Shown here one piece after another: positions 9,408 through 31,121 of a stretch of DNA of 64,000 nucleotides; position 1 is the stretch's first letter, and every line of letters starts with the position of its first letter. A program made the translations under genes and the position numbers. The stretch is from Clostridia bacterium (lineage in GTDB: Bacteria; Bacillota; Clostridia; Christensenellales; CAG-138): contig JAUNCT010000002.1 of assembly GCA_030526425.1 (NCBI GenBank), positions 1 through 64,000 on the forward strand, given 5' to 3'. The notes beneath the pieces are model-generated. The model had not been told where the DNA came from. It made no database searches and saw only the letters and a program-made list of their open reading frames with translations.

Positions 9408-9565
9408 TGTTTGACTCCCTTTGTGTGTGATTTCACGATACTTTATTATCGCACAAAAAAATTATAAATATACAAATACAGATTGTCAACGCACAGGACG
9501 AATCGGTCAAAAAAAGCCCCGGTCCGTTTTGGAACGAGGCATATTATGCATTTTGTGCATATTTA

Positions 9566-15532: not shown

Positions 15533-15675
15533 CCCCCGTTCCCACCCGCCGGAAACCTGTCCTCCTATTCAAAACGATTCTTTCCTTGGATTTTCCACTC
15601 GTTCCCGGCGGTTCCCCCGCAGCGCCCTTTTTGATTGGTGAAGGCACGCTGCGGGGGCTTTTTGTTTGCGATGTA

Positions 15676-15710
15676 CAAAAAACGGAGCCCCCGAAAGGGC
15701 TCCGTTTCGT
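15676..15710 (+). terminator. Terminator after the permease; a second, weaker hairpin lies at about 15618-15670
   Basis: aacggagccc / gggctccgtt stem with a T-rich tail. Confidence 0.7.
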
Positions 15711-16156
15711 TGTGGTACTGATATTCGGAAAAGCATCGGCCCTCCGCAGGAGGCTCCACTTGGGAATGTGCTGCAAAACGCTCACCGTTCTCAAGCGCCT
15801 TTGGCGCTTGGCTCCACTTGAGGAAGCAAGGGGATGCCCGAGCGTGCCGAAGGCGTGCGGGGCGCGACAGCTGTTGCCGAAGGCAATAGCGAAAGCGTGG
15901 CGAGCGCAAGCGAGACTGAGGGGTTTCGATGCAAGTAGGGTTCCTTTGGATTTCAACCCGCAAGCATTTCCGATAGTGGCAAGCGTTGACCTCGCACAGA
16001 ACCGATAGCCGCTCCCAACGCGATATGCCTCCCTCTGGAGGGAGGCCGAGTGTTGCGAAGCAATACGGGGCGCGGCAGTGGTGCTTGCACCACGAGAGCG
16101 GGGCACGCCGTGCAGTAGGCGCATCGGGACGGAAGGAGTTCTCTCCCACGCGACAC

Positions 16157-16192
16157 ACAAAAACGGAGCCCTTTTACGGGGCTCCGTTTTGT
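16157..16192 (-). terminator. Terminator of the TIR operon (also usable on the plus strand)
   Basis: aaacggagccc / gggctccgttt stem, nearly identical to the hairpin at 15681-15706, with T-runs on both sides. Confidence 0.7.
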
Positions 16193-16300
16193 GCCTTTCC
16201 GCCCGCCTGCGGCGGGAAGGGCGCCTGCGGCGCAGCGGCATAATAACCGCCACACCGCACCGTCATTTTCGTTTCCCGTTACCTTCGGATTGATTTCAGA

Positions 16301-19141
16301 TCAGAAGATATCGGATTCAAGATTCATCCAAAAAGCGGGGCGAACACAGCCACCGTCGTCGTTGACATAGTTGAGGAGGGAGCCGTAGGGGTACACGCGA
16401 GCGGCACAGTCCTGATTGAGGCCGGGGGAGCGCAGCCACCAACACCCGGCGGCAGCCCCTTCCGCGGTCTTATAGTCCTCGTTCGTCCAAGCACCTTGCT
16501 CTTTTGCGTACGCCGTCGGCTGCACGCGGGATTTCGTGTTCTTATCCGCGCCACTCTTCTGCCAATACTCGACGCCGAAATACTTGTTCGCCTCGGCGTA
16601 GCTCAAAAGGAACACCTTGTCCTTCGTGTCGTTGCCGCCGTTGGTGCTCCACTTGCTGTACCCCTGACTCTTGCCGTTGTCCACTTCCGTCGTCAGGATA
16701 GCCTTCTGTTCTTCCGCCGTGAACGCCTTGTTCAAAAACTCGCCGTTCAGCCAGGTGCGCAGCGTGCACTTTTCCCACGTGACGCTCGTGTCTTTCGTGT
16801 TGTATGGTTTTGCATCCAAACCGTATTTTGCTATCAGCAGCGACTTGTCGCCTTTTACATCCAGCACGATCCATTCGATCGGTTCCGCGCCGTTCGATGT
16901 GTTGTTGTCCTGCTCGTAGCTGCCGAAGGTCACGACGCTGCCCACCGTGCGGTAAAGCTTGCGCTTCGCTTCGCGCGCCGCCGCCGCCGCCGCCAGATTG
17001 TCGTCCGTTTTCAGCAGCGTGTCAACATCCTTGTAACCTTTCAGCGGCAAAAACACATCATACGCTTTATCATAATTCTTTGCCGCAAGCAGTGCCTTGC
17101 CCTGTTGGTACTTCGTTTCGGAAACCTGCGTCGCGGCGTCCTTGTAGCCGCCGAGCTCTTCGAACGCCAGCACGGCGCCCGCGTAATTTCCCGCTTCCCG
17201 CAGGGCGACCGCCTTGTTGTAGTTGCCGCTCGGGATGATGACCTTCGTCACCACGAGAAACACGGCAACGCACAGCGCCGCCGCGGCGGTGGCGATGGTG
17301 ATGAGCCGCCTGCGCTTTGCGGCGGCTTCCTCCGCGGCGATCCTTTCGCGTTCCTCCGCTTGTCTCCGGCGCTCTTCCTCTTGGCGGCGGCGTTCCTCTT
17401 CGGCGCGCCGTTCTTCCGTCTCGATGCGCCCGATCTCCGCGGCGCACCGGCGCGCAAGTTCCGCACTGTCCTTGTAACCGTGCATGGCTTCGAGCGCGGT
17501 CTTCGCGTTTGCAAAGCCCTGCTTGTCGCGCGCGGCGTTCATGGTGCCGGCAGCCTTCTCGTAATCGGCTTCGCGCTTCTTCACGGCACCATCATGCAGC
17601 TTGGCGACCTTGGCGTCCGCCGCCGCAAGGTGCGCCTTGTAAGCGTTGCACACCCTTTCGGTGCTCGCTTTGTCCTGCGCTTCGGCTTGGGCAACGCGCG
17701 CATCCAACGCGGCGTTGATTTCCGCTACCGCGGCTTCGGTCTGCTGCTTGGTTTCGCCCTTGGCGTACTGCCGCGCGCGGTTCAGCAGGCGGTCGTTCGC
17801 AAGCGCCCTTTTCTGCTGTTCCCGCTGGCTGCGCCTGCCCGCAAGCACGCTGTCATAGCCCCGGTCGAACGCGTACGGTAACCGGATCTCCTTTTCCGCA
17901 AGGTAGTGCGCAACGGTGTTTTCCTTCACCGCCCGTGCGATGTGCATCGTATCCTCGGGGCACGCGGTCAGCCGCTCCGCCGGAGGTTGCTTTTCGTTGC
18001 GCCCGCATTCCGCCTTCACCCACGAAGCGAGAGAGGGCTTCTTTTCCCGCGCGAGCAGCTTGCCGATGAACGCCTCCGCGCACTCGGGCTCGAGGTTCAG
18101 CGCCTCCTCGAAAAAGCCGTCCGCCTTTTCCCACTCGTGGTCTTCGAGCGCCATGTTGCCGCGCTTCACCTGTGCGGCGGTGGTCGTTCCGCCCACGGTC
18201 GCTTGCGTTACGACGGTCTGCACCTTGGGCGCTTCCGGCTTCTTGCCGGCATCCAGCACCTTTTTCACGCCGCGCAGCAGGTCCTGCATGAAGCCGATCT
18301 TGCCCATATCCTGGCTTTGCAGGTTGCTCAGCTCCTCCGGCAGGTCGTAGGGGTCCATCCCCCGGTAGCAGGGGATGAGCAGGCGCTTTCGGTCGTTCGC
18401 CATCAGGGCGAGGTAGCGGCTCCACTCGTTTTTGACCCACACGGCGTTGAAGTATTCGGGCTTGCTGCCGACCGCCACCATGACCTTGGCGGAATTCAGC
18501 GCCGCGAAGATATACGGTTCGTACTGCTGCCCCAGCTTGTCTTCGAGCGTGATGCGGCTGAAGAACACCTTGTAGCCCTGTTCGGCAAGCCCGTAATAGA
18601 TCTCCTGCGCCCACTGCGAGTCGCGCGTGCGCTGCCCGTTCTCATCCGTTTCCTTGTAGCAGATGAACACATCGTAGGGCTTTTCGTTCGCCGAAATCGC
18701 GAGGATGCCCTTTTGGATCTCGGCGATGCGCTGCGCCTCCGCCTTGTAGATGTTCGCGCTCTCCGCATCCGGCGCATGTTCAACGGCGGCAAGGTAATCC
18801 GCATCCGCGAGGATGCTCGCCACCTGCACGCGGTGGCAGGTCGGGATGCGCTGCTTGGTTTTCGGGTCTTCGACGTATTCGATGCCGTAACGGCTCAGCA
18901 CAGCGCCCCAATGCGCCTCGGCGTCCGTGTCGTCCTGCTCGAGCAGCTTTTCATACGCCGCGACCGCCTTGTCGAATTCGCACTGCCGGCGGAAGTGGTT
19001 CGCCCGGTTGTAGCGGTTGAGCTGCTGCTCGTCTTCCGCCTTCGGGATGGTCGAAACGCTCCCGCAGTATTCGCACGTGCCGTAGGTATCCCCCGGCGTG
19101 AACGCGATGTCCCCACCGCACATTTTGCATTTGATGATCAT
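16301..19141 (-). CDS. Zinc-ribbon / TIR-domain / single-pass TM / extracellular TPR-like plus DUF6273-like domain protein
   Basis: N-terminal CxxC...CxxC ribbon. TIR core KPYDVFICYKETDENG...KVFF with candidate catalytic Glu in AVWVKNEWSRYL. Glu/Arg-rich coiled coil, then TM helix LITIATAAAALCVAVFLVVTKVII. C-terminal domain has a CWWLRSPG...VRPAFWMNL motif. 946 aa. ATG lies 3 nt after the upstream gene's stop. Confidence 0.85.
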   Translation of the reverse strand: MIIKCKMCGGDIAFTPGDTYGTCEYCGSVSTIPKAEDEQQLNRYNRANHFRRQCEFDKAVAAYEKLLEQDDTDAEAHWGAVLSRYGIEYVEDPKTKQRIPTCHRVQVASILADADYLAAVEHAPDAESANIYKAEAQRIAEIQKGILAISANEKPYDVFICYKETDENGQRTRDSQWAQEIYYGLAEQGYKVFFSRITLEDKLGQQYEPYIFAALNSAKVMVAVGSKPEYFNAVWVKNEWSRYLALMANDRKRLLIPCYRGMDPYDLPEELSNLQSQDMGKIGFMQDLLRGVKKVLDAGKKPEAPKVQTVVTQATVGGTTTAAQVKRGNMALEDHEWEKADGFFEEALNLEPECAEAFIGKLLAREKKPSLASWVKAECGRNEKQPPAERLTACPEDTMHIARAVKENTVAHYLAEKEIRLPYAFDRGYDSVLAGRRSQREQQKRALANDRLLNRARQYAKGETKQQTEAAVAEINAALDARVAQAEAQDKASTERVCNAYKAHLAAADAKVAKLHDGAVKKREADYEKAAGTMNAARDKQGFANAKTALEAMHGYKDSAELARRCAAEIGRIETEERRAEEERRRQEEERRRQAEERERIAAEEAAAKRRRLITIATAAAALCVAVFLVVTKVIIPSGNYNKAVALREAGNYAGAVLAFEELGGYKDAATQVSETKYQQGKALLAAKNYDKAYDVFLPLKGYKDVDTLLKTDDNLAAAAAAREAKRKLYRTVGSVVTFGSYEQDNNTSNGAEPIEWIVLDVKGDKSLLIAKYGLDAKPYNTKDTSVTWEKCTLRTWLNGEFLNKAFTAEEQKAILTTEVDNGKSQGYSKWSTNGGNDTKDKVFLLSYAEANKYFGVEYWQKSGADKNTKSRVQPTAYAKEQGAWTNEDYKTAEGAAAGCWWLRSPGLNQDCAARVYPYGSLLNYVNDDGGCVRPAFWMNLESDIF

Positions 19142-19144
19142 GAT

Positions 19145-19768
19145 TTATTTCTCCGCTGTTTCAAATCTCTTAAATCTGTTTTCGACTATTTCTTCAATGT
19201 TTTTTACGAGCAGTTCGATTTTCTTTATGTTTTCCGCGTCCTTTACGCTTATTGACTTTATCTCGTTCTTTTTATAATCCCCTTTATGCACTATCGCATT
19301 TCTTCTATCCACGAGTTTCTCAACATCTTTAAGCAATGCTTCGTCTTGTGACTTTCCCTGTGCATTTTCGGTTATCTTCGGCAAACCGTACAACGCAAAC
19401 AGTTCATCAATTACTTTCATCCTTTGTGTCGTATAGTGTTCATAGTACTGATAAACCTTATCTTGGATGCCGGAAAGAGATTGATTATCCCGATACATCT
19501 CGATTACCGTACCTATTGTCACACCATAATCCAACAGGCGTTTCTCGATATTCTCGTTGATTTCCTCATTATTGATAAAGGTATAGAAATGTTCAGCAAA
19601 ACAGTTCGTCATATATGCATCCATCGCCGCAACACTCAAAACGACAGCCGCACGTAACAAATCACAATTACCTTTGGGGTCTGTACCTGCTTTCTGATTG
19701 TTGTACAAAGCTACCAATTTGTTGCAACGATCTATCGTCTTCCGAAAAATCGTATATGCATTAGACAT
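19145..19768 (-). CDS. HEPN-motif protein (RNxxxH), probable Abi-type RNase; strongly AT-rich gene
   Basis: 207-aa ORF at roughly 38% GC inside a genome of about 63% GC. Canonical HEPN motif DRRNAIVHKG near the C-terminus. Confidence 0.6.
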   Translation of the reverse strand: MSNAYTIFRKTIDRCNKLVALYNNQKAGTDPKGNCDLLRAAVVLSVAAMDAYMTNCFAEHFYTFINNEEINENIEKRLLDYGVTIGTVIEMYRDNQSLSGIQDKVYQYYEHYTTQRMKVIDELFALYGLPKITENAQGKSQDEALLKDVEKLVDRRNAIVHKGDYKKNEIKSISVKDAENIKKIELLVKNIEEIVENRFKRFETAEK

Positions 19769-19777
19769 ACTACCCGC

Positions 19778-20410
19778 TTACTTCTTCTCCGCCTTCGCGA
19801 CCGTCTTCCGCTCTTCCACCATCCGCAGCGCTTCGGCGACATCGCCCTTTTCCACCGCTTCGGCGATCCTTCCGTCCATGCTCGTCGGGGTCGGGTCGGC
19901 ACAGCGCACGGCTTCCGCCAGCCGCTTCGCCGCGGGGTCTTTCGTTTTCGCCGCAAGGGCGTTGACCGCGGTGCGGATGGCTTTCCATCCGGCGGTCGTG
20001 TCCTTCACGCGTTGTTCGCTCTTTTCCACCGCTTCGCGCACGGCTTGCTTTACGCTCAGCGCCATCAGCGTGCCGAGCACCAAAGCGATCTCGATAATGA
20101 GCGCGAGCCACAGCGGGCACAGCTTCGAAAACGCCATCAGCAGCAGACCGGCGACGAGCTGCGCCGCCAGCGCCGCACAGCCCACCCGGTACAGGGGCCA
20201 GCCGATCAGCTTGCTCTGCAAGCCTTGCGCCTTGCCGAACGCCAAATAAAACGCAACAGCGCACAGGGCGAACATCACCGCATCCGCGCCGAGCGCGACA
20301 TAAAACACCGCCGTCCGCGCGAAGGGGAACAGCAGCGCCACCGCCGCAACGAGCAGCAGCGCCAACAGCCAAACCTTGATTGCCTGCTTCGATTCTTTCA
20401 TCGTTTCCAC
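19778..20410 (-). CDS. Small membrane protein (4 predicted TM helices plus a helical cytoplasmic tail)
   Basis: 210 aa. Hydrophobic segments across aa 10-120. Stop and start are tightly spaced with the flanking genes. Confidence 0.6.
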   Translation of the reverse strand: METMKESKQAIKVWLLALLLVAAVALLFPFARTAVFYVALGADAVMFALCAVAFYLAFGKAQGLQSKLIGWPLYRVGCAALAAQLVAGLLLMAFSKLCPLWLALIIEIALVLGTLMALSVKQAVREAVEKSEQRVKDTTAGWKAIRTAVNALAAKTKDPAAKRLAEAVRCADPTPTSMDGRIAEAVEKGDVAEALRMVEERKTVAKAEKK

Positions 20411-20411
20411 C

Positions 20412-22265
20412 TCACTCGGGTCGTTTGCCGCCGCACTCGGGGCAGAACTTCGCCGTTACGCCCTTGTTGCCGCAGGCGCAATCCCACACGGCGGGGGCTT
20501 CGGGCTTTTTCGCCCCGCACTCGGGGCAAAACTTGCTTGTGATGCCCGTTGCGCCGCACGCGCAGCTCCACGCCGCCGGGGCTTCGGGCTTTTTCGCCCC
20601 GCACTCGGGGCAGAACCTGCTGGTAATGCCCTTGGCACCGCAGGCGCAGTCCCAAGCATCCGCCGCAGCGGGCGCGGGCTTCTTCGCGCCGCATTCGGGG
20701 CAGAAGTTCGAGGTGATGTTCTTTGCGCCGCACGCGCAGGTCCATCCGCCCATGCCGGCCGCCTGCCCGAGCACGCCGCCCGCCTGTTGGGTCAGGGGCG
20801 AAACGGCTTCCTTCGTCATGCCGATCACGCCGCCCATCACGCCGAGCCCGATGCCCAGCTGCATCGCATCCCCGGCGATGGTGCCGAGTCCGCCCGCGCC
20901 GCCGTTCCGCACGGCTTCCGTGCCCACCTGCCGCGCGGTCTCCTGCTGGTAGGTGTAGCCCTTCATCTTCATTTCCATGGCTTCCGCCTCCGCCTGCATG
21001 CGGTAAGCGTCCGCCTCTGCCTGCGCTTGGATGCGCAGCGCGTCCGCATCGCCCTGCGCGCCGATGACCTTCATGCGCGCGGCGGTCTGCGCCTCCACGG
21101 CCTTGCGTTCGAACGCCGCCTCCGCCTCCGCTTTTTTGATCGCCTCTTCCTTCGTTTTCAGGTACAGGTCGGCGTGCTGCTGCTTCATGCGGCGGAAGTT
21201 CGGGTCGTCGTCGGGCGTGACGATGTTCGCCACGTAGAACTCCGGCATTTCGAGACCGTATTCCGAAAGCTCGGGGTCGATCGCCGCCTTCATCGCCGCG
21301 GCGATGGCGTCGAGATGCATATCGAGCTCGAGCACGCTGATGCTGTTTTGCTTGATGACCCGCGCGAGGTTCGCCTTGACCTTGGCGGCGATCATCGTGC
21401 GGAAATATCCGCCGATGGCGCGCGCGCCGATCGCCCCGCCTTCGCCGAACAGGTCGCCCTGCGTCAGCCCGCCCGCGGTGCCCACCAGCTTGATGAGCAG
21501 CTTCCGCGCATCCGTCACGCGCATGTTGAACGCACCCGATGCGCCGAGCTCCACGTGCATGCCCGTCGCGGGGTCGAACAAACCGACCTTACTCGGCGTG
21601 CCCCACTTGATGCCCGCCTGCGTGGTGAGGTTCACGAAGTAGACCTCCGCATGGAAGGGCTGCCCGTCGACGGGCAGGCGGTACAGGGCTTCCGTCTTCG
21701 GCATCACGCCGGTTTCGAGCGTGTAGCCGCCCGGTCCGAAGGAGTCGAGCGCCTCGCCGTTGCGGAAGAACACCGCCTCCTGACTTTCGTGCACGATGAG
21801 GCGGCTGCCCGTCGTAAAGTCGGTGAGCGGGTGCTTCCACACGAAGGTGTCGTTCGCCCCTTCGTAGCGGATCACCGCGGGCACGCCCTTGTCGCGCACC
21901 TCCGCGCGTTTGATCTCCTTTTGCACATCCGCCACGGTGTCGCACACGGGGCAGGTGATGTGCGCCGCGCCCTTCGAAGCCTGCAGCTCGCAGCCGCAGG
22001 TCTCACAGCGGAAGTGCACGAGGTTGCCGTAATCGGCTTCCGTCACGAGCTGCTGCCTGCACACGGGGCACTTCGCATCCGTGCCCTCCGCCTGGTCGTA
22101 AACGACGTTGTTCCCGCAGGAGGGGCAGGTCTTCGTGGTCATGCGGTCCGTCTTCACGTGGATGACGTTGCCGCAGCTGCATTGGATGTGCTTGGATGCG
22201 AAAAAGCCCGTGCTTGCCTGCACATAGCTGTGGCAAACCGGGCATGCGATGATGAATTTTCCCAT
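20412..22265 (-). CDS. SPFH/band-7 (COG4260-type) protein with N-terminal and C-terminal zinc-ribbon arrays
   Basis: N-terminal run of CxxC motifs, then an SPFH-like core (VIRYEGANDTFVWKHPL...), a coiled coil, and four C-terminal W-C-x-C-G...F-C-P-E-C-G-x-K-(K/R)-P-E repeats. 617 aa. Confidence 0.8.
   Translation of the reverse strand: MGKFIIACPVCHSYVQASTGFFASKHIQCSCGNVIHVKTDRMTTKTCPSCGNNVVYDQAEGTDAKCPVCRQQLVTEADYGNLVHFRCETCGCELQASKGAAHITCPVCDTVADVQKEIKRAEVRDKGVPAVIRYEGANDTFVWKHPLTDFTTGSRLIVHESQEAVFFRNGEALDSFGPGGYTLETGVMPKTEALYRLPVDGQPFHAEVYFVNLTTQAGIKWGTPSKVGLFDPATGMHVELGASGAFNMRVTDARKLLIKLVGTAGGLTQGDLFGEGGAIGARAIGGYFRTMIAAKVKANLARVIKQNSISVLELDMHLDAIAAAMKAAIDPELSEYGLEMPEFYVANIVTPDDDPNFRRMKQQHADLYLKTKEEAIKKAEAEAAFERKAVEAQTAARMKVIGAQGDADALRIQAQAEADAYRMQAEAEAMEMKMKGYTYQQETARQVGTEAVRNGGAGGLGTIAGDAMQLGIGLGVMGGVIGMTKEAVSPLTQQAGGVLGQAAGMGGWTCACGAKNITSNFCPECGAKKPAPAAADAWDCACGAKGITSRFCPECGAKKPEAPAAWSCACGATGITSKFCPECGAKKPEAPAVWDCACGNKGVTAKFCPECGGKRPE
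20415..20744 (-). repeat. Four tandem DNA repeats of about 84 bp, each encoding one C-terminal zinc-ribbon module of the SPFH protein
   Basis: Near-identical nucleotide units and peptide repeats WxCACG..(I/V)T(S/A)xFCPECGxK(K/R)PE x4. Confidence 0.8.
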
Positions 22266-22330
22266 GTGTGTGCTCTCCCGTGTCGTTGTTTTATCGGTAA
22301 ACCTGTGGTGTGAACTGCATTTTCGGTACC

Positions 22331-22362
22331 ATTATACACCCCCCCCCGATTTTGCTTTTCAA
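22331..22362 (-). promoter_or_regulatory. Sigma-70-like promoter TTGAAA-N20-TATAAT with a G9 homopolymer (plus-strand C9 at 22339-22347) inside the spacer
   Basis: Read on the minus strand: TTGAAAagcaaaatcGGGGGGGGGtgTATAAT. It lies about 70 bp upstream of the ATG at 22265 and is oriented toward the operon. Confidence 0.55.
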
Positions 22363-22431
22363 CCGTTGTTTCACAATATAAGAAACGGATGTAAACGGAG
22401 TTTTGAAAGCCGCGCATGCTTCGGGGCACAG

Positions 22432-22460
22432 AAAAAAGCACCGCCGGAGCGGTGCTTTCG
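22432..22460 (-). terminator. Terminator of pyk
   Basis: agcaccgc / gcggtgct stem with a T-run on the minus strand. Confidence 0.75.
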
Positions 22461-22475
22461 TTGCTTGGTATGCGC

Positions 22476-23888
22476 TTATCTTGCGGTCTCGACCTTGATG
22501 ATGTTGGTGTTGCCGCTGCTGCCCGTGGTGCCGCCGGTGATGACGACGTTCTCGCCGGGCTTCAGGTCCATGATGCGCTTGGCCTCCTTCATGCCCTGAT
22601 AGAACATGACGTCGATGGAGGTGTAGTGCTCGCTCATCACGGGGATGACGCCCCAGCTCAGGTTCAGCTGGCGCCACGCCTTGGGCGTGGTCGTCACGCC
22701 GATGATATCCACCGGGCTGCGGAAGCGGCTGACCATGCGCGCGGTCTTTCCCGTGATGGAGTTGACCACGATGCAGCGCGCGTCCACGTCGATGGCCATC
22801 GCGCAGGTCGCGTGGGAAATGGCGTCGATGGTGTTTCCGATGGGGAACTCGGTCTTCAGGAAACGGCGCTTGTAGTTGATGCTCTTTTCGGTGAACAGGG
22901 CGATCTCCGCCATGTTGCGCACGGCTTCGGCGGGGTATTTGCCCGCGGCGGTCTCGCCGGAAAGCATGATCGCCGAGCTGCCGTCGTACACGGCGTTCGC
23001 CACGTCCGAGATCTCCGCACGGGTCGGGCGCGGGTTCGTGACCATGGATTCGAGCATCTCCGTCGCGGTGATGACGCGCTTGCCGAGCATGCGGCACTTT
23101 TCGATGAGCTTCTTTTGGATGACGGGCACCTCCACGAAGGGGATCTCCACGCCGAGGTCGCCGCGCGCAACCATGATGCCGTCGGCGATCTCGCAGATCT
23201 CTTCGATGTTGTCGACGCCGGCGCGGTTCTCGATCTTCGCGATGATGCTGATGTCCTCACCGCCGTTCTCCACGAGGAAGTCGCGCAGGACCTTCATGTC
23301 GCTCTTGTTCGAAACGAACGAAGCCGCGACGAAGTCCACATCGTTTTCGATGCCGAACAGCAGGTCGGCCTTGTCCTGCTCGCTGAGGTAATCCTGCTTG
23401 AGCACCTTGTTCGGGAAGGACATGCTCTTGCGGTCGGAAAGAACGCCGCCGTTGACGACGCGGCAGTTCACATCGTTGCCCTCGACGCTTTCGACGGTCA
23501 GCTTCACCATGCCGTTGTTGATCGTCACGGTGTCGCCCGCCTTCAGCTCCTCGTGCAGGTGCTTGTAGCTCACGGAAACGCGCTGCTCGTTGCCCGCGAC
23601 ATCCGCGGTCGTCAGGGTGAACAGGTCGCCGTCGTTCAGAACGATCTTCTTGTTTTCGAAGGTGCCGATGCGGTATTCCGGTCCCTTCGTGTCGAGCATG
23701 ATGGCGATGGGCTTGCCCAGCTCCTCGCGGATCTTCTTGATGCGGTCGATGCGCGCCTGATGCTCGGAGTGATCCCCGTGGGAGAAGTTGAGGCGCGCCA
23801 CGTTCATGCCTTCCTGCATGAGGTTGCGCAGCATCTCCTCGCTTTCGCACGCGGGGCCGATGGTGCAGATGATCTTCGTTTTTCTCAT
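22476..23888 (-). CDS. pyk: Pyruvate kinase
   Basis: MRKTKIICTIGPA start with an AGGAGG RBS. ...MVARGDLGVEIP active-site region. 470 aa. Confidence 0.95.
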   Translation of the reverse strand: MRKTKIICTIGPACESEEMLRNLMQEGMNVARLNFSHGDHSEHQARIDRIKKIREELGKPIAIMLDTKGPEYRIGTFENKKIVLNDGDLFTLTTADVAGNEQRVSVSYKHLHEELKAGDTVTINNGMVKLTVESVEGNDVNCRVVNGGVLSDRKSMSFPNKVLKQDYLSEQDKADLLFGIENDVDFVAASFVSNKSDMKVLRDFLVENGGEDISIIAKIENRAGVDNIEEICEIADGIMVARGDLGVEIPFVEVPVIQKKLIEKCRMLGKRVITATEMLESMVTNPRPTRAEISDVANAVYDGSSAIMLSGETAAGKYPAEAVRNMAEIALFTEKSINYKRRFLKTEFPIGNTIDAISHATCAMAIDVDARCIVVNSITGKTARMVSRFRSPVDIIGVTTTPKAWRQLNLSWGVIPVMSEHYTSIDVMFYQGMKEAKRIMDLKPGENVVITGGTTGSSGNTNIIKVETAR

Positions 23889-23992
23889 ATCTGAAATCCT
23901 CCTTGGGACAGAATGTCGCGGGTTTCGGTCTATTATAAAACAAAGCGCGCGGCATTCCAACAAAAACCGCGAAGTTTGTTTTTGGGGGTATG

Positions 23993-24019
23993 GAAAAACG
24001 CCCGTGCGGAAACGGGCGT
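23993..24019 (-). terminator. Terminator after the secreted hypothetical gene
   Basis: acgcccgt / acgggcgt stem followed by a T-run on the minus strand. Confidence 0.65.
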
Positions 24020-24029
24020 TGCGTGCGGC

Positions 24030-24740
24030 TCAGCCGAGGGTGAAGCCCTCCGTGCCGTCGAGACGGTACATCAGAAAGCGCGCGGCATCGTAGAAGCCCG
24101 CGTCGGCGACGGAAGCGGTGTTGCTCTTGAGGCGCGAATCGTACAGCACCGAAACGATGCCGTCGAAGCCCTCGGGCACGAGGTAGGACATCACGACGGA
24201 GCAGCGGGTCTCCTTGCGGTCGTGCTTGCGGATGAACTCCGTTTCGCCCCAGCTGAAGCGCACCTTCACGCGGCAGTCCGTCCAAGTCTTCCCGTCCCAA
24301 TCGACGGAGAACACGCCGTCGCGGTAGTTGCCCGTTTCGTCGTAGCGGGTCTCCTCGTCGAACACGGTGTTCGGGTAGGTCGCGGCGTCGTAGGCGTTTT
24401 CGAAGCGGTAGGCGGTGGTCACGCCGTAGCGGTTCGCCTTCGCGTCGAAGAAGTTCAGGTCCCAAACGACGGTGCGCCATTCGTAACCCTCCTGCGGTTC
24501 GAGCCCGCGTTCGGCGTTTTCCTTCGCGATCTCATACGCGGAAACGGCGGCGGTGCCCTTGGTCACGCACTTTTCGGCGAACTTCGCCGTGGCGGTCTTG
24601 TAATCCGCCGTTTTGCCGGGTTCGAGGTAAACGGGGGCGCACGCCTCTTCGAGGGTCACGGGCGCGGCAAGCGCGCCGGCGGCAAATGCGAACGTCAACG
24701 CGCACGCAAGAACGCGCGCGGTCCAACGGTTGGTCTTCAT
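24030..24740 (-). CDS. Secreted hypothetical protein (signal peptide)
   Basis: N-terminal signal peptide with an AxA site (AGALAAP). No recognisable domain. Confidence 0.55.
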   Translation of the reverse strand: MKTNRWTARVLACALTFAFAAGALAAPVTLEEACAPVYLEPGKTADYKTATAKFAEKCVTKGTAAVSAYEIAKENAERGLEPQEGYEWRTVVWDLNFFDAKANRYGVTTAYRFENAYDAATYPNTVFDEETRYDETGNYRDGVFSVDWDGKTWTDCRVKVRFSWGETEFIRKHDRKETRCSVVMSYLVPEGFDGIVSVLYDSRLKSNTASVADAGFYDAARFLMYRLDGTEGFTLG

Positions 24741-24934
24741 ACGGTCTCTCCTTTGAAAGCGGGATCCCGTAGATTATACCACAGCCCGCGCTTTGCCGCC
24801 ACCCGCCGCTATTCCGCCGCGGGCGCGGGTTTTGCCGCACCCAATTCGCCGCGCGGGCGGTTCCCACCATGCGTTTTGCGGGGTATAATGGGGACATCCC
24901 CCAAGGGAAAAAGCAACAAAGGAGAATGGATCTC

Positions 24935-25807
24935 ATGTTCAAAAAAGCAGACGGGACCCGCGCCTACGGACGCATCGTCGCGTTCGCGCTCGTCGCCATC
25001 ATCGTGCTCGGCGTCGCGCTGGGCTGCTACACCACCGTACCCGCAGGTCACACGGGCGTCGTGCTCAACTTCGGCCGCGTGCAGGAGACCGTCCTCGGCG
25101 AAGGTCTCAACTTCAAGATCCCCTTCGTGCAGAACGTCATGCTCATCGACAACCGCATCGTCAAGCTCGACGTCCGCACCGAATCCTTCTCGAAGGACCT
25201 GCAGTCCGTCGAAGTCGACGTGGCGGTCAACTACAACATCCGCAAGGACGCCGGCTCCGCCCTCTACCGCGACATCGGCATGAACTACGAAGACGTGCTC
25301 ATCACCCCCGCCGTGAACGAGGTGCTCAAGGCGGTCACCGCCCGCTACACCGCGGTCGAGCTCGTTGCCAACCGCTCCGAGGTCTCGGTGCTGCTCACGC
25401 AGGGGCTCGTCGAAAAACTCAGCCCCTACGGCATCTCCATCCGCGAGCTCAACATCATCAACTGGGACTTCTCGGCGGAATACATCTCCGCGGTCGAAGC
25501 CAAGCAGGTCGCCGAGCAGAACCTGATCAAGACCCGCACCGAGCAGGAGCAGGCGCTCGTCATCGCCAACACCGAGGCGCAGAAGCGCGTGATCGCCGCC
25601 GAGGCGCAGGCGAACGAGATCAAGATGCTCGCCGAAGCGACCGCCGAAAGCAACCGCACCATCGCAGAATCCCTGTCCGACGAGCTGATCCGCTACCGCA
25701 CCGTCGACAAGTGGGACGGCATGCTGCCCTCCGTTGTCGGCAGCGGCACCACCCCGATGATCGACATCTCCGGGCTCACGGGCATCGGAACGAACCCCAA
25801 CGAGTAA
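24935..25807 (+). CDS. SPFH/band-7 family protein (prohibitin/HflC-like)
   Basis: N-terminal TM, then SPFH core (GHTGVVLNFGRVQETVLGEGLNFKIPFVQNV), then coiled coil. Start chosen for RBS spacing; an alternative ATG lies at 24926. Confidence 0.8.
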   Translation: MFKKADGTRAYGRIVAFALVAIIVLGVALGCYTTVPAGHTGVVLNFGRVQETVLGEGLNFKIPFVQNVMLIDNRIVKLDVRTESFSKDLQSVEVDVAVNYNIRKDAGSALYRDIGMNYEDVLITPAVNEVLKAVTARYTAVELVANRSEVSVLLTQGLVEKLSPYGISIRELNIINWDFSAEYISAVEAKQVAEQNLIKTRTEQEQALVIANTEAQKRVIAAEAQANEIKMLAEATAESNRTIAESLSDELIRYRTVDKWDGMLPSVVGSGTTPMIDISGLTGIGTNPNE

Positions 25808-25984
25808 CCCTTTCGGGGGAGCACACCGCTTCCCCCGCACCCGCACCGTGCCGCGGCATCCCCGCGGCGCGGTTTTCTTTTGGGCGCGCCGCTCTCCCCT
25901 TGAATCCGCGCTTGCGTTTCTATATAATAGGCGGGTAAAAACCGAAAAGGAGAGCCCGCAGCCCGTTCTGCGGCACGACCGAAC

Positions 25985-27262
25985 ATGGCAAAAGAGACCC
26001 CGGTCGCCGTGCGCGACCTGATCGTCTATTCCGTTTACATCCGCAACCACACCGAGGAGGGCACCTTCCGCGCGCTCATCCCCGACCTCGACCGCATCAA
26101 AGCCCTCGGCACCGATGTCGTGTGGCTCATGCCCATCCATCCCATCGGCGAGAAGGGCAAGAAGGGGAGCCTCGGCTGCCCCTACGCCAACCGCGACTAC
26201 CGCACGACGAACCCCGCCTACGGCACGATGGAAGACTTCCGCGCCCTGTGCGACGCCGTGCACGAACGCGGCATGAAGATCATGATCGACGTCGTGTACA
26301 ACCACACCTCGCCCGACGCGACCCTCGTCACCGAGCACCCCGAGTTCTACTACCGCAAGCCCGACGGCAGCTTCGGCAACAAGACCGCCGACTGGACGGA
26401 CGTCATCGACCTCGATTACGACAACCGCGCCCTGTGGGATTACCAGATCGAAAGCCTGAAGCAGTGGGCTTCGATGGTGGACGGCTTCCGCTGCGACGTG
26501 GCGAGCCTCGTCCCCACCGGGTTCTGGTGCGCCGCCCGCGCCGCCGTGAAGGAGGTCAACCCCGATTGCTTGTGGCTCGCCGAAAGCGTGCACGCCTCCT
26601 TCGTTGCCTTCAACCGCAGCACCGGCAACTACGCCGCGAGCGACGCCGAGCTCTACGAGGCCTTCGATATCGAATACGAGTACGACATCCGCGAGATCTT
26701 CGACGAGTACACCGAGGGCAAGCGCCCGCTCAAGGACTGGCTCGAGGCGCTGAACCGTCAGGAGATCGCCTACCCCGCGAATTATTCGAAGCTCCGCTGC
26801 CTCGAAAACCACGACATGCCCCGTGCGGCGAAGCTCTTCCCCGAGCGGGAGCGCCTCGTCAACCACACCGCGATGCTGTACTTCATGAAGGGCACGACGC
26901 TCCTCTACGGCGGGCAGGAATACGCGAACAGCCACCTGCCGAGCCTGTTCGAGAAGGATGTCTTCTCCCGCGAGACCGGCTGCGACCTGTCTTCGTATCT
27001 GACCCGCCTCGGTCGCATCAAGAAGACCGTGCTCGAAGCGGACGATTGCTTCCGCGCCGTCGAAGAGAACGGCGCCGCCGTCTGCACCCGCGTGAACCCG
27101 CGCAGCGGCAAAACGAAGCTCGGCGTGTTCTGCCTTGCGGGCAAGCCCGCCGAAGTCACCGTCGACCTTGCCGACGGCACCTATGAGAACGTGCTCGGCG
27201 GCACCGTGACCGTCGCGGGCGGCAAGCTCAGCACCGCCTTCCCCGTCATCCTCGCTTACTGA
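25985..27262 (+). CDS. Cytoplasmic glycoside hydrolase family 13 alpha-amylase-like enzyme
   Basis: GH13 motifs DVVYNHTS, GFRCDVAS and a catalytic Glu region. No signal peptide. Confidence 0.8.
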   Translation: MAKETPVAVRDLIVYSVYIRNHTEEGTFRALIPDLDRIKALGTDVVWLMPIHPIGEKGKKGSLGCPYANRDYRTTNPAYGTMEDFRALCDAVHERGMKIMIDVVYNHTSPDATLVTEHPEFYYRKPDGSFGNKTADWTDVIDLDYDNRALWDYQIESLKQWASMVDGFRCDVASLVPTGFWCAARAAVKEVNPDCLWLAESVHASFVAFNRSTGNYAASDAELYEAFDIEYEYDIREIFDEYTEGKRPLKDWLEALNRQEIAYPANYSKLRCLENHDMPRAAKLFPERERLVNHTAMLYFMKGTTLLYGGQEYANSHLPSLFEKDVFSRETGCDLSSYLTRLGRIKKTVLEADDCFRAVEENGAAVCTRVNPRSGKTKLGVFCLAGKPAEVTVDLADGTYENVLGGTVTVAGGKLSTAFPVILAY

Positions 27263-27278
27263 TCGTGCGGCAAACGAA

Positions 27279-27314
27279 AGCCGCGGAACGCACTCGCGCT
27301 CCGCGGCTTTTTCT
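27279..27314. terminator. Bidirectional terminator between the amylase gene and LysR
   Basis: agccgcgga / tccgcggct stem followed by a T-run. Confidence 0.7.
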
Positions 27315-27337
27315 TTATGTGCTTTTCCGTCGCCGCT

Positions 27338-28225
27338 TCACTCCGCGGCGTCCTTCTTTTTCAAAAACGCGAGCACGCACTCCTTCAACACGCGCACGCT
27401 CTCGGGGATGCTCTCCCCCCGGCGCGTACCCATGCCGAGCTCGCGGTACGCCGGCGGGTCGAGCGGCACGCAGCGGACGTCGTCCGTCCGCCCGCGGATC
27501 ATCAGCTCCGCCATCAGCGAAACGCCGAGCCCGCTGCCGACCATGCGGATGACCGTTTCGTCGTCCACGCGCGACTCGCGGATCTCGGGCGAAACGCCCG
27601 CGTGTTCGAACACCTCCCGCACGAGCTGATCGAACCGCCCGTAGGGCATCAGAAATTCGCACCCCGCGAACGCCGCCACCGGGAATCGCTCCGCCCCGCT
27701 CAGCGGGTGACGCTTCGGGAGGATCGCATAGAGCGGCTCGTCGTACAGGGGCGTCCAATTGCACGGGCGGTCGTCCTGCTTCGCGGCGAAAATGACGTCC
27801 GTCCCGCCCGATTCCAGCAGTTCGAAGGGTTCGAGCGCGTGGTCGACCATGCGCAGGTCCACCGTGACGTCGGGGCGTTCGCGGCGGAAACGGTACAATA
27901 TCTCGGGCATCCACTGCATCGCCATGCTCGAATACGCCGCGATGCGGATGCTGCCGCGCTCCCGCGCCGTGCACGCGCGCATCTCCGCCGCAAGGCGCTC
28001 GTCCGCCCGCAGCAGTTCTTTGATGTAGGGCAGCAGCTGTTTGCCCGCAGGGGTCAGCCGCACGCCGCCGTGCCCGCGTTCGAGCACCGCGAAACCGATC
28101 TCCCGCTCAAGCCCGTCCATCATGTGCGTCAAGCCGGACTGGGTGTATTCCGTCGCTTCCGCCGCCTTGGTGAAGCTGCCGCATTCCGCGCAGGTCAGCA
28201 GCACCGACCACTTCTTCGTATCCAT
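27338..28225 (-). CDS. LysR family transcriptional regulator
   Basis: N-terminal HTH (VLLTCAECGSFTKAAEATEYTQSGLTHMMDGLEREIG) plus a LysR substrate-binding domain. 295 aa. Confidence 0.9.
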   Translation of the reverse strand: MDTKKWSVLLTCAECGSFTKAAEATEYTQSGLTHMMDGLEREIGFAVLERGHGGVRLTPAGKQLLPYIKELLRADERLAAEMRACTARERGSIRIAAYSSMAMQWMPEILYRFRRERPDVTVDLRMVDHALEPFELLESGGTDVIFAAKQDDRPCNWTPLYDEPLYAILPKRHPLSGAERFPVAAFAGCEFLMPYGRFDQLVREVFEHAGVSPEIRESRVDDETVIRMVGSGLGVSLMAELMIRGRTDDVRCVPLDPPAYRELGMGTRRGESIPESVRVLKECVLAFLKKKDAAE

Positions 28226-28335
28226 ATCCGTTCCTCGTTATCTATTACGGTTTGTCATACTTCTATTCTAATCCCGCGTTTCCTATTCCGCAAGATACAT
28301 GATAAACTCATGGTATTCCACAAAGGGGTTCCATT

Positions 28336-29688
28336 ATGAAAACGAATAAACTCACACGCGCACAGAGTCTTTTGACGGCATTCACGCTGTTCGGTATGTT
28401 CTTCGGGGCGGGCAACATGATCTTCCCCGTGCACCTCGGTCAGCTCGCGGGCAGCCACACTTGGTTGGCGATCCTCGGCTTCTGCGTCACCGCCGTCACC
28501 ATCCCGATCCTCGGCGTCGCCGCCATCGGCTGCACGCATGCGGACGGTCTGCACGCGTTGTCCCAGCGCATCGGCAAGCGCTACGGCACGGTCTTCACCT
28601 GCCTTCTGTACCTCACCATCGGACCCTTCTTCGCCATCCCGCGCTGCGCGACCGTTTCGTTCACCACGGGCATCGTGCCGATGCTCGGCGAAGGTTCCTC
28701 CCACGCCATCCCGCAGCTGATCTTCTCGCTCGTCTTCTTCGCGATCGTGCTGTATTGCTCGCTGCGCCCCGCGAAGATCACCGTGTGGATCGGCAAGATC
28801 ATCAACCCGCTGTTCCTCCTGTTCCTCGCGGTGCTGATCGTTGCGGCGCTGCGTGCGCCGGGCGCGGCGATTTCCGCCGTCGAACCCGCCGCGGGCTATG
28901 AGAACGGCGCGTTCTTCAACGCGCTCATCGAAGGCTACGGCACGATGGACGCCATCGCCGGTCTCGCCTTCGGCATCATCGTGGTGGATATCATCCGCGG
29001 CATGGGTGTGCAAGAAGACGGCGCGGTCGCCAAAGAGGTGCTGCGTTCGGGTCTTCTGACCGGCGCGCTGATGGCGCTCATCTACTGCCTCACGACCGTG
29101 ATCGGCGCCCAGTCCCGCGGGCTGTTCGAGCTTTCCGCAAACGGCGGCATCGCCTTCGTGCAGATCGCCCGCCACTACCTCGGCACGCCCGGTCTCGCGA
29201 TCCTCGCGGTCACGTTCTTCTTCGCCTGCCTCAAAACGGCGCTCGGTCTCGTGACCAGCTGTTCGGAAGCGTTCGTGCGTATGTTCCCGAACTTCATCTC
29301 CTACCGCGCTTGGGCAGTCTTTTTCACGATCTTCTCGTTCGCGGTCTCGAATATCGGTCTTTCGGCGATCATCAACTACAGTCTCCCGATGCTGATGTTC
29401 CTCTACCCGCTGTCGATCACGCTGATTTTGCTGGCGCTCTGCGGCAAGTTCTTCGGTCACGACCGCCGCGTCTACATCTCCGTCACGGCGTGCACGCTGT
29501 TCGCCGCCCTGTTCGACCTCGTCAAGACCCTGCCCGCTTCCGTCGTTTCCTCCCTGCGCCTCGGCGGCATGGTCGGCTTTGCGGAGCGTTTCCTTCCCTG
29601 GTTCGACCTGAACCTCGGCTGGGTCGTACCGGCGCTCATCGGTCTCGCGGTCGGTCTCATCCTCCGCGCGGCAAAGAAAACCGCCTGA
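28336..29688 (+). CDS. brnQ: Branched-chain amino acid transport system II carrier (LIVCS family)
   Basis: FGMFFGAGNMIFP signature. About 12 TM segments. 450 aa. Confidence 0.9.
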   Translation: MKTNKLTRAQSLLTAFTLFGMFFGAGNMIFPVHLGQLAGSHTWLAILGFCVTAVTIPILGVAAIGCTHADGLHALSQRIGKRYGTVFTCLLYLTIGPFFAIPRCATVSFTTGIVPMLGEGSSHAIPQLIFSLVFFAIVLYCSLRPAKITVWIGKIINPLFLLFLAVLIVAALRAPGAAISAVEPAAGYENGAFFNALIEGYGTMDAIAGLAFGIIVVDIIRGMGVQEDGAVAKEVLRSGLLTGALMALIYCLTTVIGAQSRGLFELSANGGIAFVQIARHYLGTPGLAILAVTFFFACLKTALGLVTSCSEAFVRMFPNFISYRAWAVFFTIFSFAVSNIGLSAIINYSLPMLMFLYPLSITLILLALCGKFFGHDRRVYISVTACTLFAALFDLVKTLPASVVSSLRLGGMVGFAERFLPWFDLNLGWVVPALIGLAVGLILRAAKKTA

Positions 29689-29705
29689 ACGCATCCCGTT
29701 TCACA

Positions 29706-29739
29706 AAGCACCGTTCTCTCGGGGACGGTGCTTTTTTCA
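29706..29739 (+). terminator. Terminator after brnQ
   Basis: agcaccgt / acggtgct stem followed by a T6 run. Confidence 0.75.
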
Positions 29740-29840
29740 TACCGTCCGCCCGCACTCCTTGCGCGGCTCCGCCCGCCTTGGTATGATGGAAAGAAAACGC
29801 GTCCCCTCCGCGGGACCCGTTTCCGAAGGAGACCCAACGT

Positions 29841-31121
29841 ATGGAATGGACAACCATCACCCTGCTGGCGCTCGGCGCCGTCAACGCGGGGCTTCTGATC
29901 GCAGCGGTCGTGCTGCTCGCCAAACCGCGGGACAAACGCACCCGCAAGGACATCGCCCGCGGCGTCGCTTTGATGAAGGAAGCGCTCGGCGAGGAGCTCG
30001 GCGCCGTCCGCAAGGAGCTCACGAGTTCCCAGTCCGACCTCCGTCAGGAGGTCACCGCCGGCGTTTCGAACCTCGGCAACATGCTGACCGAACAGCAGCG
30101 CGCCGCCGCCGCGCAGCAGGAGGAGCGCCTGCGTTCCTTCGAGCAGCAGAACATCCGCTCGCTCGAGCTCGTCCGGCAGATGACGGAGCACCGCCTCACC
30201 AAGCTGCAGGAGGACAACAACAAGCGCCTCGACGAGATCCACGGCATCGTCGACGAAAAGCTGCAGAAGACCCTCGAGGAGCGCATGGACCGCTCCTTCC
30301 GCCTCGTGAGCGAACGGCTCGAGCAGGTGTACAAGGGGCTCGGTGAGATGCAGACCCTCGCCAACGGCGTCGGCGACCTCAAAAAGGTGCTGTCGAACGT
30401 GAAGACGCGCGGCATCCTCGGGGAGATCCAGCTCGGCGCGATCCTGCGCGAGGTCCTCTCCCCCGCGCAGTACCTCGAAAACGCCGTCACCAAGCGCGAC
30501 GCGACCGAGCGCGTGGAGTTCGCCATCAAGCTGCCCACCGAAGACGGCGGCACGGTGCTGCTCCCGGTCGATTCGAAGTTCCCCGGCGACACCTACCGCG
30601 CCTTGCTCGACGCGCGGGACACCTGCGATAAGGATGCCATCCAGAAGGCCGGCGAAGAATTCGAACGCCGCCTGCGCCGCGAGGCGAAGGACATCCGCGA
30701 GAAGTACGTCGATCCGCCGCAGACGACCGAGTTCGGCGTGATGTTCCTGCCCTTCGAAGGGCTCTACGCCGAGGCCGTCAACCGCGGCATGGTCGAAGAG
30801 CTGCAGAACACCTACCGCATCAGCATCGCGGGGCCGTCGACGATGGCGGCACTGCTGAACACGCTGCAGATGGGCTTCCGCACGGTGGCGCTGCAAAAGC
30901 GTTCCGGCGAGGTCTGGAAGGTGCTCGGCGCCGTCCGCACGGAGTTCTCGAACTTCGAAGACGTACTCCGCACCTCGCAGCGGCAGATCTCGCAGGTGAG
31001 CGAAAACCTCGACAAGCTCGTCGGCGTGCGCACGCGGCGCATCCTGAAAACGCTGAACTCCGTTGAGGAGCTCGAACCCGACAGCGCCGAGCAGCTGCTC
31101 GTCGGTGCGGACGACGAATGA
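29841..31121 (+). CDS. rmuC: DNA recombination protein RmuC
   Basis: N-terminal TM, long coiled coil and a conserved RmuC C-terminal domain (VEFAIKLP...GVMFLPFEGLYAEA). Confidence 0.85.
   Translation: MEWTTITLLALGAVNAGLLIAAVVLLAKPRDKRTRKDIARGVALMKEALGEELGAVRKELTSSQSDLRQEVTAGVSNLGNMLTEQQRAAAAQQEERLRSFEQQNIRSLELVRQMTEHRLTKLQEDNNKRLDEIHGIVDEKLQKTLEERMDRSFRLVSERLEQVYKGLGEMQTLANGVGDLKKVLSNVKTRGILGEIQLGAILREVLSPAQYLENAVTKRDATERVEFAIKLPTEDGGTVLLPVDSKFPGDTYRALLDARDTCDKDAIQKAGEEFERRLRREAKDIREKYVDPPQTTEFGVMFLPFEGLYAEAVNRGMVEELQNTYRISIAGPSTMAALLNTLQMGFRTVALQKRSGEVWKVLGAVRTEFSNFEDVLRTSQRQISQVSENLDKLVGVRTRRILKTLNSVEELEPDSAEQLLVGADDE

Follow-up and report, generated by a model that had tools for sequence, protein, structure and literature searches.

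Phase variation driven by slippage is textbook in Neisseria, Haemophilus, Campylobacter and the mycoplasmas, and the poly-C tracts of Bordetella pertussis fim2/fim3 and the poly-A tract of Mycoplasma hyorhinis vlp are homopolymers of the promoter core in which slippage shifts the spacing of the recognition elements. The fim promoters are activator-dependent (BvgA), while vlp, with its poly-A tract, belongs to a genome that is AT-rich and deficient in mismatch repair; Streptomyces pglX also carries a G-tract. To our knowledge, slippage-based phase variation is hardly documented in gut Clostridia, for which invertible promoters dominate the literature. In Neisseria, the fetA (poly-C) and porA (poly-G) tracts lie between the -10 and -35 elements and changes in their length change expression (PMC5320596), where the spacer tracts of porA and fetA/frpB are cited to van der Ende 1995 and Carson 2000. 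Phase-variable defence loci include SSR-controlled restriction-modification genes of types I and III (reviewed in PMC11868660), and among the work cited in that review are invertible promoters in gut bacteria and in Clostridioides difficile.

Here, a poly-G tract is described in the spacer of a putative promoter in the window, i.e. the whole 64-kb stretch of DNA that was analysed, which belongs to an NCBI metagenome-assembled genome labelled "Clostridia bacterium" that carries MDO4492398.1 and MDO4492399.1. Read on the minus strand, positions 22362-22331 are TTGAAA-agcaaaatc-GGGGGGGGG-tg-TATAAT, GGGGGGGGG being the G9 run, and the elements of this region are as follows:

22357..22362, minus strand: -35 hexamer TTGAAA, read from the sequence; the motif GTTGAAAAG is the -35 in the related loci L013, L089 and L015
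22337..22356, minus strand: 20-nt promoter spacer (agcaaaatc + G9 + tg), read from the sequence
22339..22347, minus strand: G9 homopolymer (C9 on the plus strand), the length-variable element, read from the sequence; G11 in a Logan contig
22331..22336, minus strand: -10 hexamer TATAAT, a perfect consensus, read from the sequence
22266..22324, minus strand: predicted 5' UTR of ~58 nt, the transcription start being placed ~7 nt 3' of TATAAT, near 22324
22279-22273, minus strand: ribosome-binding site GGGAGAG, read from the sequence

The assignment of TTGAAA as the -35 element is supported by GTTGAAAAG, which the window shares with the orthologous promoters of those three loci. The original prediction, a TTGAAA-N20-TATAAT promoter with a G9 run in its spacer, was exact to the letter, and the operon start ATG that it had put about 70 bp away lies at 22265-22263, 65 nt downstream of the -10 box. 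The intergenic region that holds the promoter, between a pyruvate kinase gene and the operon, is 210 bp long. A TG precedes TATAAT, but at -14/-13 instead of -15/-14, i.e. one position out of register, and a canonical extended -10 was rejected for the window promoter on this ground. Alternative -35 elements placed 16-18 nt from TATAAT were likewise rejected, as the available hexamers (AAAGCA, AAAAGC and GAAAAG) match TTGACA, by eye, at 1-2 of six positions.

The tract and its setting are exceptional within the window. In a homopolymer scan, the G9 tract was the only G/C homopolymer longer than 6 nt in 64 kb, followed by four C6 runs, with other G runs reaching 5 nt at most. The pattern TTGAMA-N13-24-TATAAT has two occurrences in the window, where shuffles predict 0.01; the one outside the operon promoter, at 9461-9489, has a 17-nt spacer. 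TATAAT itself is enriched, with 11 copies against 2.2 expected, most of them 5' of genes, and a recognisable -35 accompanies those at 9466 (TTGACA-17), 25923 (TTGAAT-17), 23937 (TTGGAA-17, the pyruvate kinase promoter) and 34532 (TTGAGA-18). The host thus appears to use canonical sigma-A spacing, with the operon promoter as the sole exception; the 20-nt spacing, which had been called suboptimal, is indeed abnormal both against these 17-18 nt promoters of the same genome and against the orthologous promoters described below.

The genes and terminators on either side of the promoter are:

22476..23888, minus strand: pyruvate kinase gene, the upstream core-gene neighbour (Pfam PK + PK_C, E = 1.6e-125)
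22429..22458, minus strand: intrinsic terminator of the pyruvate kinase gene, a perfect 10-bp stem followed by a T-run
20412..22265, minus strand: gene 1, 617 aa, N-terminal zinc ribbons, an SPFH domain (Pfam Band_7_1, E = 3.9e-36) and four C-terminal zinc-ribbon repeats
19778..20410, minus strand: gene 2, a hydrophobic 210-aa predicted multi-pass membrane protein without a family match, from its translation
19145..19768, minus strand: gene 3, a 207-aa HEPN (RiboL-PSP) protein (Pfam HEPN_RiboL-PSP, E = 5.8e-14)
16301..19141, minus strand: gene 4, 946 aa, with zinc ribbon, TPR, TIR_2, coiled coil, transmembrane helix and DUF6273 (Pfam TIR_2 8.2e-14, DUF6273 1.3e-30, TPR_2 2.3e-10)
16157..16190, minus strand: terminator-like hairpin and T-run after the last operon gene, read from the sequence

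The four reading frames of the operon are intact and tightly packed, all on the minus strand. Since the pyruvate kinase gene ends in a terminator, which is predicted to insulate the operon from read-through, the operon needs a promoter of its own. A promoter scan limited to spacers of 16-18 nt gave no match in the upstream intergenic region, so TTGAAA/TATAAT is the one element of sigma-70 type that can be recognised from the pyruvate kinase terminator to the operon, and this hexamer pair is very probably the promoter of the four genes.

The C-terminal zinc-ribbon repeats of gene 1 correspond to a tandem array at 20431-20705 with an 84-nt unit (3.2 copies, 79% matches) and have the pattern W-x-C-x-C-G...F-C-P-E-C-G-x-K-K-P, and more than 6,500 homologs of this SPFH protein were found. 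The copy number of the 84-nt repeat varies between orthologs, and the SPFH proteins range from 553 to 654 aa. The translation of gene 3 shows the HEPN R-x4-H motif (RNAIVH) and that of gene 4 a TIR W-x-x-x-E motif (WVKNEW), the residues of both being presumably catalytic, judging from what is known of the families; the operon is therefore predicted to encode effector domains of the abortive-infection type (TIR, HEPN) with their motifs in place. The HEPN gene has a GC content of 0.48 in its kilobase, against ~0.62 elsewhere, and this is the only low-GC kilobase of the region. Beyond the last gene, a convergent intergenic region of ~770 bp (15533-16300) contains no convincing ORF, and two near-identical hairpins of the form AACGGAGCCC-n-GGGCTCCGTTTTT are found at ~16160-16190 and ~15680-15715, with no match in Rfam.

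The original prediction had described this as a TIR/HEPN operon and as a defence locus. HEPN and TIR domains are present, as genes 3 and 4, but the operon is headed by a zinc-ribbon protein of the SPFH/Band_7_1 type. Searches of the operon proteins against PADLOC-DB v2 returned marginal matches only (PDC-S66, E = 8.4e-4; Csx1, E = 1.7e-3), and the NCBIfam model Retron_TIR reached 22 bits where its cut-off is 600. With no significant match to the defence systems catalogued in PADLOC and NCBIfam, and with a conserved SPFH-headed cassette behind it (described below), the operon is oversimplified by the TIR/HEPN defence label.

The window strain is represented by two assemblies only, both metagenome-derived, which may come from the same or related samples. 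The second, Logan contig SRR24915835_9296 (hereafter L001), matches window positions 20676-29888 across 9,215 bp without a mismatch, the one gap in the alignment being the promoter tract, which is G11 in L001 (22-nt spacer) and G9 in the window (20 nt). The same 9,215 bp contain 18 five-base and 5 six-base homopolymers, all of which are unchanged. The L001 contig breaks at 20676, inside the 84-nt repeat of the SPFH gene. Exact-pattern scans for TTGAAAAGCAAAATC-N3-22-TGTATAATGG in collections of genome and metagenome contigs gave no match, the species being absent from both, and exact-protein look-ups with the SPFH, TIR and HEPN proteins and a 560-aa ORF produced no further sample; the pyruvate kinase look-up alone matched. 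The species is evidently rare, given that homolog searches returned a next SPFH protein of 77% identity and a next pyruvate kinase that is much more distant.

A simple mechanism can be proposed from these observations. Slipped-strand mispairing at replication would add or remove G's in the hypermutable spacer tract, and each change would alter both the distance between TTGAAA and TATAAT and their rotational phasing, and with them the strength of the promoter. Neither G9 (20 nt) nor G11 (22 nt) comes near the 17-nt optimum, and with either allele weak or no transcription of the operon is predicted, while shrinkage of the tract toward G6-G7 would be expected to turn it up. That the tract truly varies in length and modulates transcription is the favoured reading, held with slightly better than even confidence; that it is also an adaptive, reversible switch is less likely. 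The optimum corresponds to G6, a length at which slippage would be much rarer, so that a symmetrical, reversible ON/OFF switch is doubtful, and the tract may instead act in a graded manner, like a volume control or a ratchet, with the operon off most of the time. Furthermore, the perfect TATAAT might allow some transcription independent of the -35, which would blunt the effect of spacing.

In one respect the evidence departs from what had been proposed. The tract does lie in the spacer, and it is G9 in one assembly and G11 in the other, as a candidate phase-variation switch would have it, but the variant expands the spacer to 22 nt and neither of the two window-lineage alleles has an ON length (G5-G7). 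The optimal spacing of 16-18 nt thus falls outside the lengths observed in the window lineage (20 and 22 nt), while the only other lineage with such a tract has a 17-nt spacer without variants.

This second lineage emerged from a comparison of 80 genome and 80 metagenome loci encoding relatives of the SPFH protein, together with a few loci retrieved by exact look-up. Across the orthologous loci (948,566 + 550,799 bases), the spacer of the SPFH promoter is the only place where a G/C run reaches 8 nt, in L001 and in L008/L082; L166, which was fetched later, has the same G9 as L008 and L082. These three loci come from uncultured Oscillospiraceae with an SPFH protein 70% identical to that of the window, and their promoter, TTGACA-aaatattc-GGGGGGGGG-TAAAAT, has a spacer of exactly 17 nt (N8 + G9) and is located 3' of a terminator, ~170 nt before the ATG. 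G9 is constant across the three strains and their three assemblies (ERZ27279229, ERZ27279219 and CAYTOU010000060), which are 98.1-98.7% identical and differ by 61-69 substitutions. The constancy fits selection for 17 nt and gives no evidence of switching, although its optimum at G9 makes the L008 lineage, by structure, a more fitting candidate for a switch of the porA type. The constant G9 also demonstrates that such G runs can be assembled reproducibly, G9 having been obtained in three independent assemblies.

Closer relatives of either lineage lack the tract: L083 and L084 have TAGACA/TAGACT-N17-TATACT, L168-L172 have TTGAAA-N17-TATAAT, identical in five samples, and L011 and L014 have different upstream regions. 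The distribution of the tract is patchy and would be explained either by two gains or by several losses. Nearly all ortholog promoters that match the consensus at 11 or more of its 12 positions show a spacing of 17 nt (L008, L009, L015, L016, L022, L068, L072, L081 and L106, with TTGAAA-N17-TATAAT also in L009 and L106), and the exceptions at this level of consensus are the window (20 nt), L001 (22 nt), L076 (24 nt) and L013 (21 nt). The 24-nt hexamer pair of L076 is probably spurious. L013 has a properly placed TGn extended -10, which may compensate for its 21-nt spacer; at ~690-720 of that locus, comparison with L089 (16 nt) points to an apparent 5-nt duplication (atgat) as the source of the 21 nt, a further instance of altered spacer length among these promoters. 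The position of the promoter, at ~-70 to -110 from the ATG, is common to the window and its orthologs. By a rough estimate, the rate of G/C runs of this length has an upper bound of ~2e-6 per bp (none in ~1.5 Mb of background), and ~60 distinct spacers amount to ~1.2 kb, giving <0.003 tracts expected by chance against two lineages observed. Together with the rarity of the run and of the hexamer pair within the window, this excludes a chance origin of the tract within the promoter.

Three other explanations need to be weighed against a length-variable tract that modulates transcription. The difference between G9 and G11 could be technical, a product of library-PCR slippage, base-calling or the choice made by an assembler, in which case the true tract would be fixed and the spacer merely unusual. 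Just two assemblies are available, both metagenome-derived, long homopolymers are a classic site of indel error, and the uniform G9 of the L008 lineage indicates that such tracts need not vary; yet the difference is of 2 nt and not 1 nt, in consensus sequences, the remainder of the 9,215 bp, with its 23 homopolymers of 5-6 nt, has no indel, and three independent assemblies of the other lineage resolved G9 consistently. Even at a fixed length, the off-register spacing and the recurrence of the tract would remain to be explained, and a technical origin is considered unlikely. Alternatively, the tract could be real and unstable without being a switch, an expanded G run having degraded the promoter so that its length now drifts neutrally and the operon is silenced or expressed at a low constitutive level from the -10 alone. 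Both lengths are off-optimum, the variant is an expansion and no ON allele was found, all of which this account would lead one to expect; the cassette is also accessory, being absent 3' of pyruvate kinase in the sister taxon L165, and it carries a foreign, low-GC HEPN gene, whose possible cost when expressed could favour silencing. Neutral drift is nevertheless unlikely, given that the four ORFs are intact and tightly packed, with no sign of decay after silencing, that the L008 lineage keeps G9 at exactly 17 nt in three diverged strains, as would be expected of a maintained part of a working promoter, and that G/C runs of at least 8 nt are otherwise absent from ~1.5 Mb of related DNA.

It is very improbable that transcription of the operon is independent of the hexamer pair, through another sigma factor, an activator-dependent promoter or residual read-through, such that the length of the tract has no effect. 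The transcription start was placed from the sequence, a spacer of 20-22 nt is not expected to work well and the 16-18 nt promoter scan was empty in the region, as would be the case if the true promoter were of another kind. However, the hexamer pair is far beyond chance and shares its -35 motif and position with the orthologs, a perfect 10-bp terminator hairpin stands upstream, and the 210-bp intergenic region contains no other promoter-like element, inverted-repeat switch or RNA element. The favoured reading remains that of a tract whose length varies and modulates transcription from this promoter.

Several other candidates were considered and rejected. An inverton is not indicated, as no inverted repeats flank the promoter and the only intergenic inverted repeat is the hairpin of the pyruvate kinase terminator. 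A riboswitch or attenuator in the 5' UTR was dismissed, there being no Rfam match and no significant fold (z = 0.2). A two-colour poly-G artefact or a chimeric join was discarded on the grounds that the tract is internal, that both flanks align collinearly in the two assemblies of the strain, and that three assemblies from a different species show this architecture as well.

The operon controlled by this promoter appears to be a version of a widespread Clostridial SPFH / membrane-protein / TPR-TIR-DUF6273 cassette with a HEPN gene inserted. A homolog of gene 2 lies directly 3' of the SPFH gene in 129 of the 148 loci with at least 1 kb downstream, and a homolog of the zinc-ribbon/TPR/TIR N-terminal region of gene 4 is found in 55 of the 58 loci with at least 4 kb downstream, while none of the 165 related loci encodes a homolog of the HEPN protein. 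Because of this absence and its low GC content, the HEPN gene is interpreted as a lineage-specific insertion, and it appears foreign. The slot between the membrane-protein and TIR genes is variable in relatives, with an unrelated 230-aa gene in L083 and a ~1-kb gap in L084. The genomic context of the cassette differs between loci, and the nearest relative by pyruvate kinase, the sister taxon L165 (P0122), has no cassette 3' of its pyruvate kinase; judging from these comparisons, the cassette is widespread but accessory in gut and rumen-type Clostridia. Two of the closest relatives have resolvase-family genes immediately 5' of their SPFH cassette (L084, 4926-5498; L167, 277-570), and this upstream position suggests that the cassette travels on, or adjoins, mobile DNA.

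No publication was found that links SPFH and TIR in anti-phage defence. Diversity-generating retroelements include DUF6273 among their target domains (PMC10743442, PMC11792537), and diversification of this kind was considered for the DUF6273 end of the TIR protein (16301-16900, minus strand), but it was rejected as the 64-kb window contains no copy resembling a template repeat.

Slippage in a promoter spacer is an established mechanism, and what is new is the host, an uncultured gut Clostridia bacterium, the target, a conserved and uncatalogued SPFH / membrane-protein / TIR-DUF6273 cassette with an inserted HEPN gene, and the occurrence of the same spacer tract in two lineages. If variation is confirmed, it would mean that uncultured commensals hedge the expression of potentially self-toxic modules via contingency loci and that metagenome assemblies hide homopolymer heterogeneity, and the cassette, with well over a hundred related loci here and none in the defence catalogues, would have a function worth testing. 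It is conceivable, if doubtful, that poly-G spacer switches have arisen or been kept repeatedly on this widespread but undescribed Clostridial cassette, in which a zinc-ribbon-SPFH protein is joined by a 4-TM protein and by a zinc-ribbon-TPR-TIR transmembrane protein whose DUF6273 is extracellular, that the cassette is a costly, membrane-associated TIR sensing or immunity module bet-hedged by slippage, and that the captured HEPN RNase adds to the cost and pushes the tract to the OFF register here. Were the reading of a bet-hedged TIR cassette true, neither TIR systems nor uncultured gut Clostridia would have a described precedent for transcriptional phase variation of the SSR type; were the G9/G11 difference technical, an oddly spaced promoter of minor interest would remain.

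The gene content of the cassette may have a partial counterpart in Bacillus subtilis, where YdjI belongs to Band_7_1 and YdjG carries zinc ribbons. The PspA-YdjGHI (SamGHI) module of that species combines an SPFH protein with membrane proteins (PMC8581546; bioRxiv 10.64898/2026.02.06.704340). Similarly, an SPFH protein (Band_7_1, E = 3.9e-36) is encoded alongside a membrane protein here, with the zinc ribbons fused to the SPFH protein, but the operon has no pspA and in most relatives the cassette is coupled to a TIR-domain transmembrane protein.

As to regulation, invertible promoters also give heritable ON/OFF heterogeneity of accessory operons in gut anaerobes, but they act by site-specific inversion between inverted repeats, and no such repeats flank the window promoter. 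The SSR-controlled restriction-modification genes and pglX share with the proposed model the idea of stochastic switching, by a repeat tract, of an immunity function that is costly or toxic; the tracts of those loci are mostly coding and act by frameshifting, whereas this one lies in a promoter, that of an operon without a significant PADLOC match. The likeness is to porA and fetA/frpB of Neisseria, with which the locus shares a G/C homopolymer in the -35/-10 spacer (~9-14 nt); its length differs between strains in Neisseria and between the two assemblies here, and in porA and fetA spacing sets the level of transcription, a volume control more than a strict ON/OFF switch. The Neisseria lengths straddle the optimal spacing, and both switching and its effect on expression have been measured, while the lengths here, as read from the assemblies, are 20 and 22 nt. 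Furthermore, the Neisseria tracts control an outer-membrane antigen, whereas here the tract belongs to an SPFH-TIR cassette, cytoplasmic or membrane, of an uncultured Gram-positive gut anaerobe.
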